Of a stretch of 64,000 nt of DNA, positions 12,275 to 48,292 are shown piece after piece; within the stretch, counting starts at the first letter, position 1, and each line of letters begins with the position of its first letter. The position numbers and the translations under genes are program-made. This DNA comes from Escherichia typing phage 1: sequence record KP869100; one strand, written 5' to 3'. The notes below the pieces were generated by a model, which saw only the letters and a list, made by a program, of their open reading frames with translations, was not told the origin of the DNA and ran no database searches.

Positions 12275-12966
12275 TGTTTAACTAACATAGTTTTAATGTG
12301 TGGAAGGATTCTGTTTACCTTCTGAACATTATTCTCTGTATCTTCTATAAAGCATACTATATTAAAGTAAGGAAGAATGCAAGACTGAATCATCCTCACT
12401 TTCAAACTTTCTGCACTTATAGAGTTAGTTCCAAAACCACGCATAAAAAGCAAGTAATCATGCTCTATATTGTGCCTTAAAAACATCTCAGTAGGTATTC
12501 TCTGAGATTCACCTCTTGCTGTCAAGAGTCCAACTGCTGCATGATTTGCAATTGCATCAATAATGTTGAAAACATATGTTGGCTTTGCTCTTACAGAATC
12601 AAGAAGATTAGTGTACTGTGAGAATGAACCATCAGTCAATTCCGTTGAGCAATCTTCGTGATTAAAATTTGTAAGAACACCATCAATATCTGCTAAGATG
12701 AGGTTACCTTTTTCTACAAGGTCTTTATTGACTATGACTAAACTATCGCGCCTTACACCTATAGTTTGTCCAGTCTCTTTGTCCACAACGTTCACAATTG
12801 GTTCTGATGTGTGGAACTCTTCCAGTGAACATACAACTTCTCTTGCAGTGTCTTCAAAATCCCTACACTGTTCTGGAGTCCATACACAGGAATCAAGACC
12901 TAACTCATGAGGATGTAAGTCATAAGCGTGGCACAGGACTTCATCAGACTTTTTTAATTTTTTCAT
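12271..12966 (-). CDS. HAD-superfamily phosphatase-like protein
   Basis: 231 aa; LILADIDGVLTNF matches HAD motif I (DxDGVL). Confidence 0.45.
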   Translation of the reverse strand: MKKLKKSDEVLCHAYDLHPHELGLDSCVWTPEQCRDFEDTAREVVCSLEEFHTSEPIVNVVDKETGQTIGVRRDSLVIVNKDLVEKGNLILADIDGVLTNFNHEDCSTELTDGSFSQYTNLLDSVRAKPTYVFNIIDAIANHAAVGLLTARGESQRIPTEMFLRHNIEHDYLLFMRGFGTNSISAESLKVRMIQSCILPYFNIVCFIEDTENNVQKVNRILPHIKTMLVKH

Positions 12967-13492
12967 GGTTTACCTTAGAAATGTTTGTTGCAAATTCACA
13001 TTGAGCAATAACTTTCATGTTGTTATAGACATCTTGAGAATATTTCTTAGCTTTAGGGATTCTGTACGAATACCCAGCATTATATGATGCTAAAACTTTT
13101 TGTAAAGTCTTCTTTGACTTTGGGTGACCATGCACCTTCGTCCAAAACTCAAGCTCTTTATGTGTTTCTTTTGCGGCATAGTCAAAATCTTTTAAGAGTT
13201 TCTTTTTAGCAACATTAGGACTAATTTTGTTACGCTTTACAACAGTCTTCAAGTGATTCTGGAAGATACCATAGTCATGGGTCTTTTTATTTTCTACCTT
13301 CAGACCTAACTCTGACTCTTGTAAGGCTATAGCTGCTAGAGTGATACCCCAACCTTTACCCATGTTATTCTCACCATACTGGTAAGCTTTTAACATGTTC
13401 ACTTTTTGGCTAATTGATAGTTCTGGGCAGTCAACTGCATAAGATAAGTGTGCTGTAAACATTAAGCACAAACCTAGAATCAATTTCTTCAT
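12944..13492 (-). CDS. secreted lytic transglycosylase (SLT domain; candidate endolysin)
   Basis: 182 aa; N-terminal signal peptide; SLT motifs ALQESELG, GIFQ and AYNAGYSY. Confidence 0.65.
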   Translation of the reverse strand: MKKLILGLCLMFTAHLSYAVDCPELSISQKVNMLKAYQYGENNMGKGWGITLAAIALQESELGLKVENKKTHDYGIFQNHLKTVVKRNKISPNVAKKKLLKDFDYAAKETHKELEFWTKVHGHPKSKKTLQKVLASYNAGYSYRIPKAKKYSQDVYNNMKVIAQCEFATNISKVNHEKIKKV

Positions 13493-13592: not shown

Positions 13593-14702
13593 TTAGATTT
13601 CACGTTTACGTTGAGAGATGAGTTCACCAGCAGTGCCAACGATGACATGCAAAGCTTCAGTCTTACCGTCCCATGCTTCCAGCACTTTACGTTGATTATC
13701 AACGATTGCTGCAACTTCATAACGAGAGGAACGCATCTTCATATCATTGTAATCAGTTGGAACAGATACAACATCTCGTGGATGTACGCGAACCTTCAGG
13801 ATTGTATCACCTGAGAAGCAACGAACATAATCCCAAGCACCAACATGAAGACCTTGAGAGCAAGTTACGTTACGGTTATTATCAACCATCCAACGTGGCA
13901 TTTCTACAATGTTACCCAAATCATTAGGCACTTTGTAGGTGTGAGAGTCAACCAGCTTGCCTTCACGAGTAGAGACTTTCTTCCAACCAATGATGTAGCC
14001 TTCTTCATCAATTTCAACATCAAGGTGAGATACAAATCCCCAAAGTTGTTCTACAGAATCTTTAGATGGGTTTTCCATCAGTTTTTCGAAGAACATTACA
14101 AGTCGTTCAAAACCTTTATCGCCAGTTTTCATCATGTGAAGAATACGGTCAACCAGAGTAGAACGCATCTCAACAGCACCGTAGAATAGCTTGTCGCCTT
14201 TGATTGTGATAGCACCCTGAGTGAAGTTTTCGATAGACTTACGAATGTTCATCAGTTCAAATGCTTTCTTGAACTGACCTTTCACAACATGAACTACAAT
14301 CTCTTGATAGTTCGGATGAGTAGACTCAACAATTTCAGATTCTGAACCATAAGTCATAATTACAGAATCACCAGTAATCATGTACTCAATCTTGTCATCT
14401 TTCTGCATAGCTTCGTGCAGTTTATTTACTGGAGCTTTCTGTACAGTGTCTTTAACGACCTTTTCAACTGGTTTGCCAGCTTTCTTTTTAAAAGTCTTAG
14501 CAAATTGTTTCAAAGTCTTCGTAGCTGGTGTAGAAGTTGCCTTCTTCTTGCCTTTTAAGGTTGCTTCATGACGCTCTACAGCACGACCAACTGAACGGGT
14601 TGAAGTATTGAACTTCTGTGCAATAGCTGTTTTAGTCAGCTTACCTTCTTTAACCAGTTTGTAAATTTCTGCGTCAATCTGTGCTTTAGTTTTAGTAGTC
14701 AT
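13593..14702 (-). CDS. putative rIIB-like protein with N-terminal HTH
   Basis: 369 aa; immediately downstream of the rIIA-like gene as in T4; HTH-like LTKTAIAQKFNTSTRSVGRAVERH; assigned by synteny only. Confidence 0.4.
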   Translation of the reverse strand: MTTKTKAQIDAEIYKLVKEGKLTKTAIAQKFNTSTRSVGRAVERHEATLKGKKKATSTPATKTLKQFAKTFKKKAGKPVEKVVKDTVQKAPVNKLHEAMQKDDKIEYMITGDSVIMTYGSESEIVESTHPNYQEIVVHVVKGQFKKAFELMNIRKSIENFTQGAITIKGDKLFYGAVEMRSTLVDRILHMMKTGDKGFERLVMFFEKLMENPSKDSVEQLWGFVSHLDVEIDEEGYIIGWKKVSTREGKLVDSHTYKVPNDLGNIVEMPRWMVDNNRNVTCSQGLHVGAWDYVRCFSGDTILKVRVHPRDVVSVPTDYNDMKMRSSRYEVAAIVDNQRKVLEAWDGKTEALHVIVGTAGELISQRKREI

Positions 14703-14781: not shown

Positions 14782-17148
14782 TTAATCGTAAATTGTTGTA
14801 CCTTCTGGAACACATTTCACATTAAAGCCTAAAAACTTACTCACTTCGATAGGTGATACTTTATTCCAATCTAAGTGTGAAAGCAAGAAGTTTTCTTGTT
14901 TTCTTTTTGAAAGATAGTTTGTCAGCTTGATAACCATGCGGTCACCTGCTTTTTTAATCTTTTTGTACAGTTTTGTGTCATTATCAAGGCATGACTTCAA
15001 ATCCTGAAGAACACTGATAGTGTAAGTGTATGCAAACGGTGCAGCCACATACTGAATCTTACCGAACATTGCCTCAACAGCATCTTCATTCCCTTCTAAG
15101 AAGATTGTCTTAATAGTATCCCTTGAATAACAATACCCGCGAGAAATCTTCCTGTTATTGAACGTAAAGTTTCTGGCAATAATCCAACTGCTTGTAAGGT
15201 CGAGGACACCATCCATGTAGATGCGTGTCATATACCTGTTATGGTTAATCCAATGAACATCAGTTAAGCTGTCGTTCAAGAGCTTCTCATCTACTTCAAT
15301 CCAGTCTTCTGGTATCTTTTTCCAATTTGCTTTTCGGAAAACATAGACTGTCTTGCCTGTAACATTAGCAACTGACTTAGCTACATCCTCTGGAGATGAG
15401 CAAAAACATCTACCATCAACTGTGTCACCTACTGCCTTAATATAAAGCTGAGGCTCTTCAATTGTGTCTAAGTCTTCTGACACCTCTTTGTATGAAGCTT
15501 TAGTTTCTGCTGGAACAGCTTTCCAGAGTTTTACAACACCCCTTACAGCTTCTTTACGCTGATAGTGGTGTTCCTTATCAGACATCTTCACAATCTTTAA
15601 CAAGCTTTTATCAAGTTTGTGTAGATTGATTAAATCATCTAACTCTTTTTCAGTCGAGAATACAAAGACAATACCATTGTATCTGTGAAACAGATTTGAC
15701 TCACTGGCGTAGTCTCGACATGCACCACGCAAAATTTGATTGCGTCCTACAGTCTTCTCAGTACCGTTTTTATTGCGACGGTCATTAATCACGAACAAAA
15801 ACTGTTCAATTTGGCTTTTACGCATTGCACCAAAGATATTGAACATGCTTGCCTCTTGAGTGTAGGAAAGTGCTGTTGCACGAATCTTACTCTCTAAAGA
15901 GTTGAACTTGACATAAGCAACTGGGTCATAAAGATAATCTACTTTAGGGATATTGTTCCCGTTCCTATCAACCTTAATATTGCCTTTACCGTCACGTTCA
16001 TAAATGACTGAGCCGTCTTCTGCGTAGATAATTCCACGACGAATGTTTAACAATTCTTCTTCCAGAGAATCAAGCTTAATGCCTCCCCACTCTAGCTTTG
16101 GACACACAGCATTAAACATCTCTCGTGAGTTCAAACGTAGCTCTGCATAAGCCTGTGCAGCATCCATGAGTGTAGGTTGGCTATTAACTTTCTTGATAAC
16201 ATCCTTTGTAATTGCTTCAGTTATCTTTTTGGTAGCCTCGATGATAACATTTTTTGTCGTATCATTCATCTGCAATGCTTCACGAGAAGCTGCTATAGCA
16301 ACTGAACCAATAGGCATGTAGATGTTTACAAGGTCTACGCTCCTACGGAAAAACTCTGGCAAGACTTTGAAGAAATCATCACCAAGTAATGCTTCCATGT
16401 TCACTGGATAGGCAATATTACCCATCACCACATTAAACTCTGTCCTGTTACCACTAGAACGCCAGCTTTGCTTATGAATCATGGCATCATAAACACCTTC
16501 TTCACGGGCAATGACGTTCATATCTGCTAATACATCGTCGTACTCAATATTACTTTCTGGTTTTACAGTGAAGTATGAGTACACATTTCCAGCTTCTTCA
16601 AAGAACTTTGAGATACGGTGGTCAGCAACTGCCACACGTACAGCTAAACCATTAGGTTCTTTTGTTGGGTTAGTGGTCAGCTTAGTTACTTGAGGGATAC
16701 CATTCTCAAGATAAACAGAGTACTTATTAACAACACCATCAACATAGCTAGATACTGTGAATGACTGAGCAATTGCAAATGGGGATTTTGAGCCGATACC
16801 CATTGCACCAATGTAGTCATTAGAGTCATTCTTCGTAGAAGCCCCGTAGTTTAGGTACAAACTCATAACTTTATCATGAGTCAATCCAGTTCCAAAATCA
16901 CGAACTTCAAAGTAAGGCTCAAAACGAGTAGGTAAATGCACATGGAACGGAATGTTCTCTTTTCCAGCTTCTTTCTGAGCATCTACTGCGTTACATGACA
17001 GTTCACGAATCACTGCCCTTTCTTTAAAGGTATATACACCAGAACTCAAAAGGCTGAACATCTCAGGTGTCATTGTAATCTGTGCTTGAGACGTCTCTAA
17101 AGAAGTTGAACTCTTAATCACTTCTGCGTGGTCATTTACCATGCGCAT
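14782..17148 (-). CDS. rIIA: rIIA-like protein (GHKL ATPase fold)
   Basis: 788 aa; GHKL motifs IRELSCNAVDA, DFGTGLT, GAMGIGSKS. Confidence 0.65.
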   Translation of the reverse strand: MRMVNDHAEVIKSSTSLETSQAQITMTPEMFSLLSSGVYTFKERAVIRELSCNAVDAQKEAGKENIPFHVHLPTRFEPYFEVRDFGTGLTHDKVMSLYLNYGASTKNDSNDYIGAMGIGSKSPFAIAQSFTVSSYVDGVVNKYSVYLENGIPQVTKLTTNPTKEPNGLAVRVAVADHRISKFFEEAGNVYSYFTVKPESNIEYDDVLADMNVIAREEGVYDAMIHKQSWRSSGNRTEFNVVMGNIAYPVNMEALLGDDFFKVLPEFFRRSVDLVNIYMPIGSVAIAASREALQMNDTTKNVIIEATKKITEAITKDVIKKVNSQPTLMDAAQAYAELRLNSREMFNAVCPKLEWGGIKLDSLEEELLNIRRGIIYAEDGSVIYERDGKGNIKVDRNGNNIPKVDYLYDPVAYVKFNSLESKIRATALSYTQEASMFNIFGAMRKSQIEQFLFVINDRRNKNGTEKTVGRNQILRGACRDYASESNLFHRYNGIVFVFSTEKELDDLINLHKLDKSLLKIVKMSDKEHHYQRKEAVRGVVKLWKAVPAETKASYKEVSEDLDTIEEPQLYIKAVGDTVDGRCFCSSPEDVAKSVANVTGKTVYVFRKANWKKIPEDWIEVDEKLLNDSLTDVHWINHNRYMTRIYMDGVLDLTSSWIIARNFTFNNRKISRGYCYSRDTIKTIFLEGNEDAVEAMFGKIQYVAAPFAYTYTISVLQDLKSCLDNDTKLYKKIKKAGDRMVIKLTNYLSKRKQENFLLSHLDWNKVSPIEVSKFLGFNVKCVPEGTTIYD

Positions 17149-17176: not shown

Positions 17177-17353
17177 TTACTTATTAAACATTTTACCAGA
17201 ACCACCACACATAGGGCAACAACCTGCTCTTGTATACCCTTCTCCGTTACAGTAGTCACACTTCTTGTGTTCTGCAAAGTACTTACAAAGAAGATAAACA
17301 AGGACTGCTACACTACCAAGTGACAGTAAAATTTCTACCCAATATGCTTGCAT
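17177..17353 (-). CDS. unlisted 58-aa membrane-anchored zinc-ribbon peptide
   Basis: Hand-translated MQAYWVEILLSLGSVAVLVYLLCKYFAEHKKCDYCNGEGYTRAGCCPMCGGSGKMFNK; TM segment + CxxC..CxxC; below the track length cutoff. Confidence 0.35.
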   Translation of the reverse strand: MQAYWVEILLSLGSVAVLVYLLCKYFAEHKKCDYCNGEGYTRAGCCPMCGGSGKMFNK

Positions 17354-17682
17354 GACTCACCCCTCATGTTTTTGTAAAGGATAAAGCTTCTGTCATGGAC
17401 GATACTTGTAGATACTGCAAAGTTACTTTCAAGCATCTGTTTGTTTGGATTGTAGAAGCTTTTTTTAAACTCGTCAAGTGCAAATTGGTGATGGTCTGGA
17501 AGACCTTTTACACAAACTTTTATTGTGATTGCTGCTGCAATCTTGCCAGTCAGTTCTTCTTTAGCTGCTACTAAAATTTTGTTAAGGAACTTTTTACCAT
17601 CTTCAGGTTTCTTAATGTTCTCCCAACGTTCTTCTAAGATAATGTTGATGTTCATCTCTTTGATTTTCATAGTTTTCACCAA
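17335..17682 (-). CDS. hypothetical protein
   Basis: 115-aa ORF. Confidence 0.45.
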   Translation of the reverse strand: MVKTMKIKEMNINIILEERWENIKKPEDGKKFLNKILVAAKEELTGKIAAAITIKVCVKGLPDHHQFALDEFKKSFYNPNKQMLESNFAVSTSIVHDRSFILYKNMRGESCKHIG

Positions 17683-18020
17683 GTCCAGTTAATGAGTATG
17701 CCATCGAAACCTTTTGCTAAAGGTACACCCTCATGTTCATAAAATTCAGGATTAACTTCGAATCCACGATTTTCAATATACTCTATCATGTATTTCATTA
17801 CAAAGCTAATCTCTTCGTAGTCATCTGGGTCTCTGCCAAAGAACTGTTCTATGACAAACATACCTTCTTTTGTAGCAAATTGGCAGTGGTGATTGTAGAT
17901 ACCTTCACAAAACTTTTCAAACTTTTCTTTACCGAGAACTTTAAGGATGTCTGTATAGGCAACTTGTAAGTATTTCGGTTGTACAGGTTTATTGTTAAAC
18001 CATATGGAAAGGTTGTCCAT
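17676..18020 (-). CDS. hypothetical protein
   Basis: 114-aa ORF; preceded by terminator and SD. Confidence 0.45.
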   Translation of the reverse strand: MDNLSIWFNNKPVQPKYLQVAYTDILKVLGKEKFEKFCEGIYNHHCQFATKEGMFVIEQFFGRDPDDYEEISFVMKYMIEYIENRGFEVNPEFYEHEGVPLAKGFDGILINWTW

Positions 18021-18032
18021 AGCATTCTCCAG

Positions 18033-18058
18033 AAATTAAAAAGGCTCCCGTAGGAGCC
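18033..18058 (-). terminator. intrinsic terminator (GGCTCC-CGTA-GGAGCC)
   Basis: Perfect 6-bp stem at 18043-18058 followed on the minus strand by TTTTTAATTT. Confidence 0.6.
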
Positions 18059-18073
18059 TCTTATCATATACTT

Positions 18074-19855
18074 TTAAAGCTGCTTGTCAATATTATTTCG
18101 AATATCACCAAGAGTTGTGTAACCGTACTGCTCAGAGTCGCTAAAGACTAAACGTAAAGCACAAGCTGGATGTTCAAGTGCATCTGCAAAGCTCTGGAAT
18201 CCATAGCCATCTACAGCTTTCAAATTCTCACCATCCCACATAGGTGCTACACCACCAAAGGCAGATTTCTTAACACCACTATCTGTTTTAGGGTCTTTTG
18301 CAAGCATAATCTCTTTGCCACCAATGCTTGCAAGAGTTGCTTTGACAGCAAATGCAAAGGTGTCACGAGTCATGTACTGGTAAGTGTAAGAGCCTACACC
18401 AAACACCACGTTAGAGCTTGCAAACCCCATTTCATACAGACGCTTCAGGATTTCGTTTGCACGTTCCAACGTGATAGAGTCGCCATAGATAAGTCCAATG
18501 TGCTCATCCAGTACCTTAAAACCTTTAGAGTTGATAGTTCCTCCAAAGATGTTATACAAGGTCTTAATAGCTCCATCAATCTCTGCTACAGGGCGTGTTA
18601 CAACGTTTGCAGAACCAACCATATAAGCGTTCTTCAACATCACTGTATCAGCAACTTCAAAGTCTTCTCTGTCAACAACCATTTCGTAGCCTTCTGACAG
18701 TAGCCATCCAGCAATACCATAGTTGATGTTTTCAAGCTTCATGTTAAGAACAGCATTCAACATTGTGTCACTGACTTCCAGCTTGCTTAGGTGCTCGTAA
18801 TAAGCCTTCTTAGCACATTCTAAGTGGATTGCTTTATAACCTGTGACAATATGTACAGGGTCTCCAGAGTCAGGGCGAATTACCAGTTTGCCATCACGTT
18901 CCATAATTTCTTTACGAAGTGCTGGTAAGATTTCTGACACAGTTCTCCAGAAGTTATAAGTATCTGAAACAATACTTGCAATACCTGTTGGGTAAGTTTC
19001 TGTTAAGAAACGACGGAAGGTTTGTAACTCACCTTTAAAGCGTCTTTCTTCTTCAATCAACTCATTACCACCTTCCCAAGCAATGTTTGCACACATTACA
19101 GAGTGCTCAGTGGCTGGTACAGAGCTACCAATATCAGAGATTGGGTAGGACTGTCCATAGATTCGTTTAGCCGTGTATACAGCAGGGAAGCTATCAGTCC
19201 CTTTAAAGCTGGTTAAGTGACCTACAGCGTTAAATGCGTCATCAGTAAAGCCGGACATACCACGCATAGCAAAATCATGGCACTGATAAGGTAAATGTAA
19301 GTCATTGTCACAAGTAAGGTCAGCCCACTTCTTACAGATGCGTTTGTAATGCAATGCAATAGTTGCAATGGTGCAAGCCTTCCAAATTTCAGCAGAGAAA
19401 GCATCTTCCAGATAACCTGCTACCCAATGAAAACCTGAAACAGTGTTCTGAAAGACAATCATCGGGACACGCATTGGAACAACTGTGCCTTCTTCTACAG
19501 CGTATACTTCAACTGGTAGATAACCTAAGTCGTGAAGTGCTTCCCAATGCTCTCGACCGATAGCATCTTTACCCAGAACACCATTCATGACTTCTAAGAT
19601 TTCATCAATGGCTTCTTTTTTATCACGTTCAAAGAAAGTGGCATTCCAGTGGTCTATCAAGTAATCTTTAACAAAACGTTGAATACCAAAAGCCACTACA
19701 CCGTCAATTGCTAAAGGGCTGTTAAACCATTTATCACTACGTGGTGTCAGGTTGAACATCAAGTATTCTGTTGCACTAGGATACTGGTAAACATGACCAG
19801 ATTTGTAAGCATCTGCATTTAAACCTGCTGGTACTGCATAAAGTGATTTAGTCAT
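18074..19855 (-). CDS. nicotinamide phosphoribosyltransferase-like enzyme (NAMPT/NadV family; possibly Namat)
   Basis: 593 aa; N-terminus AVPAGLNADAYKSGHVYQYP typical of the NAMPT family; adjacent to a Prs-like gene. Confidence 0.75.
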   Translation of the reverse strand: MTKSLYAVPAGLNADAYKSGHVYQYPSATEYLMFNLTPRSDKWFNSPLAIDGVVAFGIQRFVKDYLIDHWNATFFERDKKEAIDEILEVMNGVLGKDAIGREHWEALHDLGYLPVEVYAVEEGTVVPMRVPMIVFQNTVSGFHWVAGYLEDAFSAEIWKACTIATIALHYKRICKKWADLTCDNDLHLPYQCHDFAMRGMSGFTDDAFNAVGHLTSFKGTDSFPAVYTAKRIYGQSYPISDIGSSVPATEHSVMCANIAWEGGNELIEEERRFKGELQTFRRFLTETYPTGIASIVSDTYNFWRTVSEILPALRKEIMERDGKLVIRPDSGDPVHIVTGYKAIHLECAKKAYYEHLSKLEVSDTMLNAVLNMKLENINYGIAGWLLSEGYEMVVDREDFEVADTVMLKNAYMVGSANVVTRPVAEIDGAIKTLYNIFGGTINSKGFKVLDEHIGLIYGDSITLERANEILKRLYEMGFASSNVVFGVGSYTYQYMTRDTFAFAVKATLASIGGKEIMLAKDPKTDSGVKKSAFGGVAPMWDGENLKAVDGYGFQSFADALEHPACALRLVFSDSEQYGYTTLGDIRNNIDKQL

Positions 19856-19900: not shown

Positions 19901-20797
19901 TCAATCAAGGTTTGCTACAGTAACTTGACCATAATGTGTTAAGCCACGGTCTTTAGCTTCCCCTAAAGAGTTTGTAGTGTAGATATGGTCAATACCATTG
20001 TCAAGAAGGTTTTCAACATCTTTAGAGAAGATACCATGTGTTACATAGAGTTCCACACGTTTTGTACCTGCTTCACGGAGATGCTTAGCTGCTTCTATGA
20101 AGGTTCGACCACCATCACAGATATCATCCAGAATCATGACGGTTTTATCTGTCAAATCAACATCATCAAGGATTCGCATACCAGTAATTTCACCAGTCTT
20201 AAGGTTACGCACCTTAGACATTGTGATATATGGTTTATCCACCTCTTTAGCGGTCTCTGCAACCTTCTTAGCAGCACCTGCATCTGGGGCTACTAAGTAA
20301 TCAACCAGTGGGTCATTTGCATAGTGGACTGCAATCTCCTTTTGAGGAATACTCTGGAAGCAGTTAAACAGGTTATCTGGTACATAGCTGTGAGGGTCAA
20401 CTGCACAGACTGCGCCAAATCCCATTGCATTAATCTGTTTAGCAAAAACCTTTAAAGCTGCTGCGTCACCTTTAAACATGTGACGGTCATATCGTGCATT
20501 TGGTAAGTAGTAAAAGATGACAGTCTTTAAAGCATAATCATGAGGAATTAAATCATCAATTGCTTCTTTAGCAAGTGCCACAGCAAACAATGTGTCCTTG
20601 TCATAACCTTTTACAATCATAATCACATTGTTGATGGATGATGCTGCATAAGCAGTAAAATCAACAAACTCTGGCGAAAAGTGTCCACCAATCTCACCAG
20701 AAGGGAATTGGACGATGTTAAACTCTTCTTCATGAGTCCCTTTAGTTGGTGAATGAACTGTAACACGGATAGATGTTTTCATAGTTTTCTCTCTCAA
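19901..20797 (-). CDS. ribose-phosphate pyrophosphokinase-like enzyme (Prs family; possibly Adps)
   Basis: 298 aa; VMILDDICDGGRTF matches the Prs ribose-phosphate binding loop; N-terminal half diverges from canonical Prs. Confidence 0.75.
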   Translation of the reverse strand: MREKTMKTSIRVTVHSPTKGTHEEEFNIVQFPSGEIGGHFSPEFVDFTAYAASSINNVIMIVKGYDKDTLFAVALAKEAIDDLIPHDYALKTVIFYYLPNARYDRHMFKGDAAALKVFAKQINAMGFGAVCAVDPHSYVPDNLFNCFQSIPQKEIAVHYANDPLVDYLVAPDAGAAKKVAETAKEVDKPYITMSKVRNLKTGEITGMRILDDVDLTDKTVMILDDICDGGRTFIEAAKHLREAGTKRVELYVTHGIFSKDVENLLDNGIDHIYTTNSLGEAKDRGLTHYGQVTVANLD

Positions 20798-48031: not shown

Positions 48032-48292
48032 ATGAAAATTGAACACTGCTATGAGTCTGATGGAACACCTATCCGATGTCCACATTGTGGGTGTACAGAC
48101 TTGCAAGGCGAGGTAAGTGAAATAGTCAACGGTCATATCGCTGAAGAGAGTACAAGGTGTACAGAGTGTAATGAAATCATTGCTTTCTGGGCTTATGGTT
48201 CATACCAACCTACACCACACTTAATATACCATAGCAATAAAGCTGTGAAGAATGTTATCAACTGGTTCATTAAGAAAGGATTTACAAAATGA
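48032..48292 (+). CDS. small zinc-ribbon protein
   Basis: 86 aa; CPHCGC ... CTEC. Confidence 0.5.
   Translation: MKIEHCYESDGTPIRCPHCGCTDLQGEVSEIVNGHIAEESTRCTECNEIIAFWAYGSYQPTPHLIYHSNKAVKNVINWFIKKGFTK

Follow-up and report, generated by a model that had tools for sequence, protein, structure and literature searches.

The 58-codon ORF located directly upstream of rIIA in Escherichia typing phage 1 is a real and strongly conserved gene of Felix O1-like phages. Its product combines a predicted N-terminal transmembrane helix with two CxxCxGxG knuckles, and we consider it probable, on balance, that this accessory Ounavirinae gene, itself probably early, encodes a membrane-tethered protein-binding zinc module having its N-terminus outside and its C-terminus inside. 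Neither the ORF nor the DnaJ-like reading of its motif is new, since both are already public in GenBank, in the Bas63, phage Mushroom and Erwinia phage labels and in PHROG 3931. The features discussed below were located in the analyzed window, a stretch of 64,000 nucleotides from sequence record KP869100:

17177..17353, minus strand: coding sequence of the 58-aa ORF (58 residues plus stop), supported by its translation, a full-length match to PHROG 3931, an annotated CDS in KP869113 and pN/pS
17356..17365, minus strand: Shine-Dalgarno-like GAGGGGTGAG, read from the sequence and lying inside the 3' end of the upstream gene
17335..17353, minus strand: 19-nt overlap between the first six codons of the 58-aa ORF and the last codons plus stop of the 111-aa gene
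17285..17338, minus strand: predicted transmembrane helix, codons 6-23 (VEILLSLGSVAVLVYLLC), based on Kyte-Doolittle hydropathy, an AlphaFold2 model and pN/pS of 0.18
17195..17260, minus strand: two CxxCxGxG knuckles (CDYCNGEG ... CPMCGGSG), codons 32-53, predicted to form a single Zn(Cys)4 ribbon; pN/pS of 0.06
17335..17670, minus strand: upstream 111-aa gene, PHROG 4262, no assigned function
14782..17148, minus strand: rIIA, 788 aa, directly downstream of the 58-aa ORF; assigned by annotation of relatives, tblastn and synteny
13593..14702, minus strand: rIIB, 369 aa, next downstream of rIIA; assigned by annotation in relatives
18039..18062, minus strand: terminator-like hairpin after the NAMPT gene

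A sequence-only reading of the window had described the ORF as unlisted. This is true of the ORF track used in that reading, in which a protein of 58 residues falls below the 60-aa cutoff, but not of most public records, among them AKE47291.1, NP_945023, the phage Mushroom annotation and PHROG 3931. The hand translation and the coordinates were exact: the computed minus-strand translation of 17177-17353 is MQAYWVEILLSLGSVAVLVYLLCKYFAEHKKCDYCNGEGYTRAGCCPMCGGSGKMFNK*, and the ORF listing gives the identical 58-aa ORF. The window is Felixounavirus DNA: over this region, identity reaches 99.9% with E. coli O157 typing phage 15 (KP869113, Felixounavirus) and 94-97% with many Felix O1-like phages. 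The identical protein is annotated in KP869113 as CDS AKE47291.1, and the sequence in phage HY02 is identical as well. According to the Tribble record and a published gene table, the Felix O1 ortholog is the 'hypothetical membrane protein' Felix01p243 (NP_945023). The Bas63 ortholog is the 'putative membrane protein' bas63_0083, phage Mushroom has the label 'heat shock protein; DnaJ-like, contains cysteine-rich domain', and several Erwinia phages label the family 'dnaJ: chaperone protein'. Public annotation of the family, as 'hypothetical membrane protein' or 'DnaJ-like', is about twenty years old. As a sequence feature, the gene adds nothing to what GenBank, PHROGs and a published gene table already record. 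A search of the literature returned no Felixounavirus transcriptome and, except for one gene table, no paper on the 58-aa protein.

The translation signals of the ORF are well defined. It reads from an ATG at 17353-17351 to a TAA at 17179-17177, and the core of GAGGGGTGAG, about 6 nt ahead of the ATG, represents a strong Shine-Dalgarno match at normal spacing. The element is kept as GAGAGGTGAG in relatives, and a ribosome-binding site is annotated for the counterpart in phage Mushroom. The overlap with the stop of the upstream gene, noticed earlier by eye, amounts to 19 nt. The same 19-nt overlap is present in Suspvirus and in metagenomic relatives, codons 1-6 of the 58-aa ORF, which form it, show zero synonymous changes, and the arrangement suggests translational coupling with the upstream 111-aa gene. 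On the other side, 28 nt separate the stop of the 58-aa ORF from the rIIA start at 17148, so that the ORF indeed sits between rIIA and its neighbour. A six-frame listing of the window contains 542 ORFs of 30 aa or longer; CxxCxGxG occurs in none of the others, and the 58-aa ORF carries two copies. The ORF is thus far beyond chance.

The pattern of substitutions is that of a protein under strong constraint. Among 22 distinct Felixounavirus alleles, variable sites number 7, 5 and 30 at codon positions 1, 2 and 3, respectively, and pN/pS is 0.09. In a second run, on 19 alleles, pN/pS was 0.094 for the 58-aa ORF, 0.105 for its upstream neighbour and 0.041 for rIIA; within the ORF, the helix scores 0.18 and the zinc domain 0.06. 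Of the five alternative frames at the locus, four give pN/pS of 1-3.8, and the fifth, an antisense frame that has third codon positions in common with the ORF, gives 0.12. The frame is intact at all 25 Felixounavirus loci examined. The ORF is frameshifted in three GenBank records and in three protein clusters, in each case by one 1-nt indel that falls in a poly-A run, a T-run or GGAGAAGGG; the downstream sequence is otherwise intact, and one of the GenBank records is flagged 'UNVERIFIED'. Therefore, these frameshifts are most likely sequencing errors, and pseudogenization was rejected. The sequence-only reading had stated beforehand that it would fall if the frame or the cysteines were not conserved in related phages and no translation signal was seen; the frame and the four zinc cysteines are kept, and orthologs at 28-54% identity retain the architecture of a helix followed by two CxxCxGxG repeats.

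Orthologs at 28-58% identity come from Suspvirus, Mooglevirus, the EcSzw-2 lineage, metagenomic relatives, Kolesnikvirus phiEa21-4 (gp117), Pectobacterium phage Arno18 and Yersinia phage P778. The protein matches PHROG 3931, a family with no assigned function, over its full length (E=4e-33, 114 bits, residues 1-58 on profile positions 1-59 of 59). PHROG 3931 includes proteins of Felix O1, typing phage 15, Bas63, phiEa21-4 (gp117) and RB49/Phi1 (ORF046), with labels that span 'membrane protein' to 'chaperone protein'; it is also matched by the Kolesnikvirus, Krischvirus and metagenomic relatives. The Krischvirus protein, RB49/Phi1 ORF046, represents a more distant branch (PHROG 3931 E=4e-10). 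Full-length relatives were few in an exhaustive HMMER search of 1.84 billion representative proteins. When 5.8 billion proteins were searched with a profile, 18 clusters came back, and every cluster whose source is named or whose contig was traced belongs to a phage. The family is phage-only, and it occurs in about 250 phage records, compared with 2,923 for rIIA. Weak tblastn matches in cyanophage S-RIM2 (inside a 285-aa protein) and Vibrio phage K242 (on the unannotated strand) differ in architecture and were rejected.

The single hydrophobic helix seen by eye is N-terminal and covers residues ~6-23, with a Kyte-Doolittle 18-residue mean of 2.31. The AlphaFold2 model based on a 7-sequence alignment (pLDDT 74) has a helix at residues 3-28 followed by short β-hairpins, with pLDDT of 76-87 over residues 1-20; a single-sequence model (pLDDT 65) had spurious helices in the Cys region and was rejected. 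By the positive-inside rule, the positively charged side of a membrane protein is the cytoplasmic one. In 12 of 12 family members there is no Lys or Arg before the helix, whereas the C-terminal part has 2-6, and the C-terminus is therefore predicted to be cytoplasmic, that is, the topology would be N-out/C-in. In Suspvirus-like members, the linker after the helix is negative in net charge (as distinct from the Lys+Arg count), and so the predicted topology is not beyond doubt. Neither a signal-peptide n-region nor a lipobox was found in the 58-aa protein. A lipoprotein or a signal peptide was accordingly dismissed: the n-region has no positive charge, 'LLC' is no lipobox, and its cysteine is missing in some lineages. 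Between genera, conservation of the helix equals or exceeds that of the non-ligand surface of the zinc domain, a hint that the helix may do more than anchor the protein.

The C-terminal domain is defined by its cysteines. The predicted zinc ligands, C32, C35, C46 and C49, are invariant in all aligned lineages, down to 28% identity, and together with G37, G51 and G53 they make up the residues invariant across the family. The extra Cys45, which forms a CC pair at 45-46, is common but not invariant, being replaced by Pro, Ile, Leu or Val in P0028, Arno18, P778 and Kolesnikvirus. The rest of the domain surface varies a lot between genera. The earlier proposal of a DnaJ-like CxxCxGxG pattern is well borne out, both motifs being perfect. 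The best sequence-profile match of the family is the cysteine-rich domain of E. coli DnaJ (1EXK), with E=3e-8 and 1e-7, while positions 30-53 of the family profile align without gaps to Anti-TRAP residues 10-33. Anti-TRAP structures (3LD0, 3LCZ and 2BX9) are also the best PDB matches found by Foldseek, with rmsd of 1.5-1.7 over 27-28 residues, 30-36% identity and probability of 0.89-0.97; the corresponding E-values are weak (0.16-0.4) because the domain is tiny. A further lead, a weak PDB match to EMB2737 (chain 8xku_R), fell to E=0.7 with a broader profile and was discarded. The model shows one Cys4 zinc ribbon, comparable to Anti-TRAP or to one half of the cysteine-rich domain in DnaJ. We infer that the protein binds one Zn(II) through C32/C35/C46/C49, and one zinc rather than two, because only two CxxCxGxG repeats are present and DnaJ needs four for two centres.

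Similarity to these proteins does not amount to membership in their families. The protein has no Pfam DnaJ match to a J domain even at E<=10, and the sequence that precedes the Cys motifs is the hydrophobic helix. The score against PF00684 (DnaJ cysteine-rich), with repeats starting at residues 32 and 46, is 17.1 bits against a threshold of 32.7 bits. NCBIfam DnaJ_bact scores 17.3 against 377, and the Anti-TRAP/RtpA families score 9.3 against 32 bits (Pfam PF15777) and 11 against 65 (NCBIfam NF058604). Judged by these profiles, the protein is a putative zinc knuckle of the DnaJ/Anti-TRAP type that belongs to neither family. To call the protein a 'heat shock protein' or 'dnaJ: chaperone protein', as some GenBank records do, over-reaches, since there is no J domain and the scores lie below all the curated thresholds; these labels are over-annotations and should not be propagated. 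In the BFVD viral structure library, this knuckle recurs in many other small phage proteins, all of them uncharacterized.

The genomic neighbours of the 58-aa ORF are NAMPT, two ORFs without assigned function (114 aa and 111 aa, between NAMPT and the 58-aa ORF) and rIIA/rIIB. The nearer of the two ORFs, annotated at 17335-17670, would encode 115 aa if it started at 17682. The 788-aa rIIA product is 30-36% identical to T4-like rIIA by tblastn (E 1e-30 to 1e-46), and Pfam Phage_T4_rIIB is matched by the rIIB orthologs in two metagenomic relatives, L033 and L042. In the segment upstream of the 58-aa ORF, a terminator was found only after NAMPT, and a terminator is annotated at the equivalent place in phages Tribble and phiEa21-4. 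The hairpin at 18039..18062 is likely to be the upstream boundary of the transcription unit that includes the 58-aa ORF, which appears, from the sequence, to be co-transcribed with rIIA.

In every Ounavirinae lineage that we sampled (Felixounavirus, Suspvirus, Mooglevirus, the EcSzw-2 lineage, Kolesnikvirus, Arno18 and P778), and in metagenomic relatives too, the 58-aa gene is the last gene before rIIA. What precedes it is less stable. Between NAMPT and the homolog, Suspvirus has DUF7279 and a 111-aa protein, Kolesnikvirus has two proteins of other PHROG families, and Arno18 and P778 have none. The PHROG 4262 gene is coupled to the 58-aa ORF in Felixounavirus, Suspvirus and Mooglevirus only. 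An obligate pairing with the 111-aa protein was thus rejected, since in Kolesnikvirus it is replaced by a member of another PHROG family (weak similarity, E=0.035) and in Arno18 and Yersinia phage P778 the gene is absent. A general association with rII fares no better. At the equivalent position upstream of T4 rIIA lies rIIA.1, whose 67-aa product is soluble, free of cysteines and unrelated. No ORF combining a transmembrane segment with CxxCxGxG was found in the 1.2 kb preceding rIIA in seven other rIIA-bearing lineages (Slopekvirus, Tulanevirus, Vapseptimavirus, Kuttervirus, an N4-like phage, Vequintavirus and Krischvirus). On the grounds of T4 and these seven lineages, such an association was rejected. 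The Krischvirus homolog itself is located far from rIIA, after nrdH, whose stop it overlaps by 11 nt, whereas in Ounavirinae the 58-aa gene is about 5 kb from the nrd genes.

What is known about this part of the genome comes from Felixounavirus Bas63. According to the PhageMaP study, the 46-66 kb segment of the Bas63 knockout map is uniformly non-essential on four laboratory hosts (PMC11482910), and bas63_0083 (g83), the ortholog of the 58-aa gene, lies at 56.2 kb, within that segment. The same source describes g79/g80 (Prs, NAMPT) as validated counters of Sir2-HerA, the Ec86 retron and hhe, and g84/g85 (rIIA/B) as validated counters of QatABCD that form a co-essential pair; in its text, g83 is not named as a counter or a trigger (PMC11482910). 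By analogy with Bas63, the 58-aa gene would be placed in a conditionally dispensable region rich in counter-defence genes. PADLOC gave no match at E<=1 for the 58-aa ORF or the two upstream ORFs. The sequence-only reading had gone further, calling small tethered zinc ribbons typical of phage host-interference peptides. We found no experimental basis for that statement, and the relatives in phage databases are all uncharacterized; nevertheless, judging from the neighbouring counter-defence genes of Bas63, host interference by the 58-aa protein is possible.

The membrane-tethered binding module that we favor could work as follows. The very short acidic or neutral N-terminus would reach the periplasm, a single helix (residues ~6-23) would span the inner membrane, and the C-terminal domain of about 27 residues would lie in the cytoplasm, its two knuckles chelating a single Zn(II). 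The zinc knuckle, and probably the conserved helix too, would dock on a partner at the cytoplasmic face of the inner membrane, and the docked partner would be modulated or sequestered. The protein would be made from a polycistronic message shared with rIIA and rIIB, we infer early expression of its gene, and the gene would be part of the conditionally dispensable host-interaction and counter-defence portion of the genome. Action by binding is suggested because the protein lacks a J domain and leaves no space for a catalytic site, and a tethered module is proposed because the characterized J-domain-less relatives work by protein-protein contact. A single conserved target fits poorly, given that the non-ligand surface of the zinc domain is variable between genera. 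In a bolder form of the idea, the protein is a new counter-defence or host-takeover factor that sequesters or remodels an inner-membrane-proximal protein, either alone or as a third RII component in Ounavirinae. We regard this as possible but doubtful; its targets might include a pore-forming or depolarizing abortive-infection effector, FtsH or DnaK.

Several other explanations have to be weighed against the tethered binding module. One candidate role for the protein is that of a dedicated small subunit or cofactor of RIIA/RIIB, anchoring or regulating RII at the inner membrane and helping to protect against abortive-infection systems (RexAB and QatABCD, for example) that depolarize the membrane. 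Such a role would account for its position directly upstream of rIIA in seven Ounavirinae lineages despite swapped or lost preceding genes, and it would agree with the apparent co-transcription and with the Bas63 rIIA/B genes being validated QatABCD counters. We nonetheless find it rather unlikely: the Krischvirus homolog resides next to nrdH, such a gene is missing from the 1.2 kb ahead of rIIA in T4 and in seven other rIIA-bearing lineages, rIIA is present in 2,923 phage records against about 250 for the family, the co-essential pair in the PhageMaP study consists of g84 and g85 but not g83, and adjacency may be mere inherited gene order. The tethered knuckle could instead be directed at the host, as an inhibitor or adaptor that binds host machinery near the membrane, for instance the FtsH protease or DnaK/DnaJ, in parallel to the plant protein FIP, whose architecture and predicted topology it matches (PMC5915565). 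The similarity to the DnaJ cysteine-rich domain of the host and the location in a host-interaction region point the same way. However, genera with similar hosts differ in the surface of the zinc domain, and FIP is reported from land plants only (PMC5915565), which leaves this option with a small chance. Were the topology inverted, with a disulfide-bonded Cys-rich domain in the periplasm serving, for example, the envelope or superinfection exclusion, the net negative linker of Suspvirus-like members and the odd number of cysteines in the tail would find an explanation. The distribution of Lys and Arg around the helix in all 12 members, the missing signal-peptide n-region and the match of the motif to cytoplasmic zinc modules make such an orientation highly improbable.

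The CxxC pairs also raise the question of a thiol-disulfide redox function, maybe tied to glutaredoxin/NrdH and ribonucleotide reduction. The DnaJ zinc finger exchanges disulfides in vitro, as does LQY1, and such exchange has been reported for plant CYO1. In the phage family, an extra cysteine beside CxxC is common (CC at 45-46), the second knuckle is often CPYC or CPHC, sequences that resemble oxidoreductase active sites, and the Krischvirus homolog overlaps the nrdH stop. Yet CPxCG is also a standard zinc-knuckle motif, the extra cysteine is not invariant, the Ounavirinae gene is distant from the nrd genes, and there is neither a thioredoxin fold nor room for one, so we consider a redox role very unlikely. 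We give even less credence to a function in lysis, whether as the missing holin of Felix O1-like phages, as an antiholin or as a regulator of lysis timing. In its favor, the protein has a small size, a single transmembrane helix and a charged C-terminus, its gene adjoins genes labelled 'lysis inhibitor', and Felix O1-like phages are reported to lack a holin beside the endolysin (PMC4837284). But it matches no holin family in Pfam, NCBIfam or PHROGs, a conserved zinc ribbon is foreign to holins, the gene belongs to the nucleotide-metabolism/rII cluster rather than standing by the endolysin, and both the Bas63 annotation and the PhageMaP paper put holins elsewhere in the genome.

The value of the gene lies in what it offers as an experimental target. 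It encodes only 58 residues, is under strong purifying selection and keeps a constant position before rIIA in the lineages sampled. Its Bas63 ortholog lies between two validated counter-defence modules, NAD+ reconstitution on one side and RIIA/B, active against QatABCD, on the other. The mechanism of RII has been a puzzle for decades, which makes a small membrane protein constantly encoded next to it an inexpensive lead to follow.

Among the systems already known, Anti-TRAP (RtpA) of Bacillus, a protein of 53 aa, is the closest in fold, having the same two-knuckle, one-zinc module with identical spacing. Anti-TRAP is soluble, whereas the phage protein has an N-terminal transmembrane helix instead. 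In Anti-TRAP, a C-terminal helix drives the assembly of trimers and dodecamers; the phage protein has only 4-5 residues after the second knuckle and, in the model, no such helix. The PDB names Anti-TRAP an antagonist of TRAP-RNA interactions, and TRAP is not known from enterobacterial hosts. The cysteine-rich domain of DnaJ/Hsp40 has the CxxCxGxG repeat in common with the phage protein. DnaJ, however, possesses four repeats, a J domain and a G/F region, as opposed to two repeats and no J domain here, and in 1EXK the four repeats form two zinc centres within a V-shaped domain. Anti-TRAP, the DnaJ cysteine-rich domain and BSD2 all act by protein-protein contact. BSD2 and LQY1 are, like CYO1, OR and HCF222, DnaJ-like zinc-finger proteins that lack a J domain. 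In overall architecture and predicted orientation, the counterpart of the 58-aa protein, going by the published description, is Arabidopsis FIP (At5g02160), a plant thylakoid protein with a lumenal N-terminus, a transmembrane helix and a stromal C4 zinc finger made of two CxxCxGxG motifs (PMC5915565). The stroma corresponds here to the bacterial cytoplasm. FIP interacts with FtsH5 in yeast two-hybrid and pull-down experiments and is reported to be restricted to land plants (PMC5915565). Any resemblance between the two would hence be convergent, and we take FIP as a functional analogy only, of a small zinc finger held at a membrane by one helix and engaging a protein partner.

The zinc-ribbon ORF (58 aa, window 17177-17353, minus strand) lies in a neighborhood whose gene content differs across the Ounavirinae in the slot separating it from the nicotinamide phosphoribosyltransferase (NAMPT) gene. 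The genes identified upstream by Pfam, and the occupants of this slot in the window, in Suspvirus (locus L003) and in Kolesnikvirus (locus L036), are as follows.

19901-20797, minus strand: ribose-phosphate pyrophosphokinase (prs) gene
18074-19855, minus strand: NAMPT gene
17676-18020, minus strand: slot occupant, 114-aa ORF of PHROG 20372
L003:2972-3187: Suspvirus occupant, 71-aa DUF7279 protein
L036:3038-3499: Kolesnikvirus occupant, 153-aa protein

The slot is empty in Arno18 and Yersinia phage P778 (L048, L050), and in some relatives an HNH endonuclease is inserted between prs and NAMPT. The window prs and NAMPT genes are orthologous to g79 and g80 of the related phage Bas63, respectively, for which countering of Sir2-HerA (NAD+-depleting), the Ec86 retron and hhe has been validated by experiment (PMC11482910).

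Two adjoining elements lie at the end of the NAMPT gene.

18090-18063, minus strand: near-consensus promoter-like site, TTGACA-16-TATGAT
18062-18039, minus strand: terminator-like hairpin, directly 3' of NAMPT

A transcript initiated at the promoter-like site would have its 5' end within the hairpin, and 18039-18090 may represent a stop-and-restart boundary for the unit holding the zinc-ribbon ORF and rIIA/B.

In three GenBank Felixounavirus records, phiWec174 (L039), NJ12 (L040) and GE_vB_B3 (L041), the zinc-ribbon ORF carries single-nucleotide indels, which lead to mis-annotated products of 41-63 aa. The indels fall within a run of A, a run of T and GGAGAAGGG, and are probably sequencing errors. 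The record of the Krischvirus Shigella phage Sf20 has no annotation for the homolog (L038:1435-1600), which follows a gene for an nrdH-like glutaredoxin; Phi1 and other Krischvirus genomes annotate theirs.

Elsewhere in the window, two further ORFs deserve mention.

12944-13492, minus strand: 182-aa ORF with a signal-peptide-like N-terminus
48032-48292, plus strand: 86-aa ORF with CxxC ... CxxC spacing (RCPHCGC ... RCTECNE)

The former matches the SLT lytic transglycosylase domain below threshold (19.2 vs 21.3 bits), and the latter may be a further small zinc-ribbon protein. ARAGORN found no tRNA genes within the 64-kb window. A published abstract gives about 20 tRNAs per Felix O1-like genome, which places the tRNA cluster outside the window.

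Downstream of the zinc-ribbon ORF are the two rII genes.

14782-17148, minus strand: rIIA, ortholog of Bas63 g84
13593-14702, minus strand: rIIB, ortholog of Bas63 g85

Neither window protein has a Pfam match at E<=0.001. Bas63 was shown to need both of its genes to plate on a host carrying QatABCD (PMC11482910). The gene directly 5' of rIIA in the T4-like Slopekvirus Klebsiella phage KP5 (L051:954-1190) encodes a membrane protein of 78 aa that spans the membrane once and lacks a zinc motif. Non-homologous small membrane proteins may recur beside rIIA.
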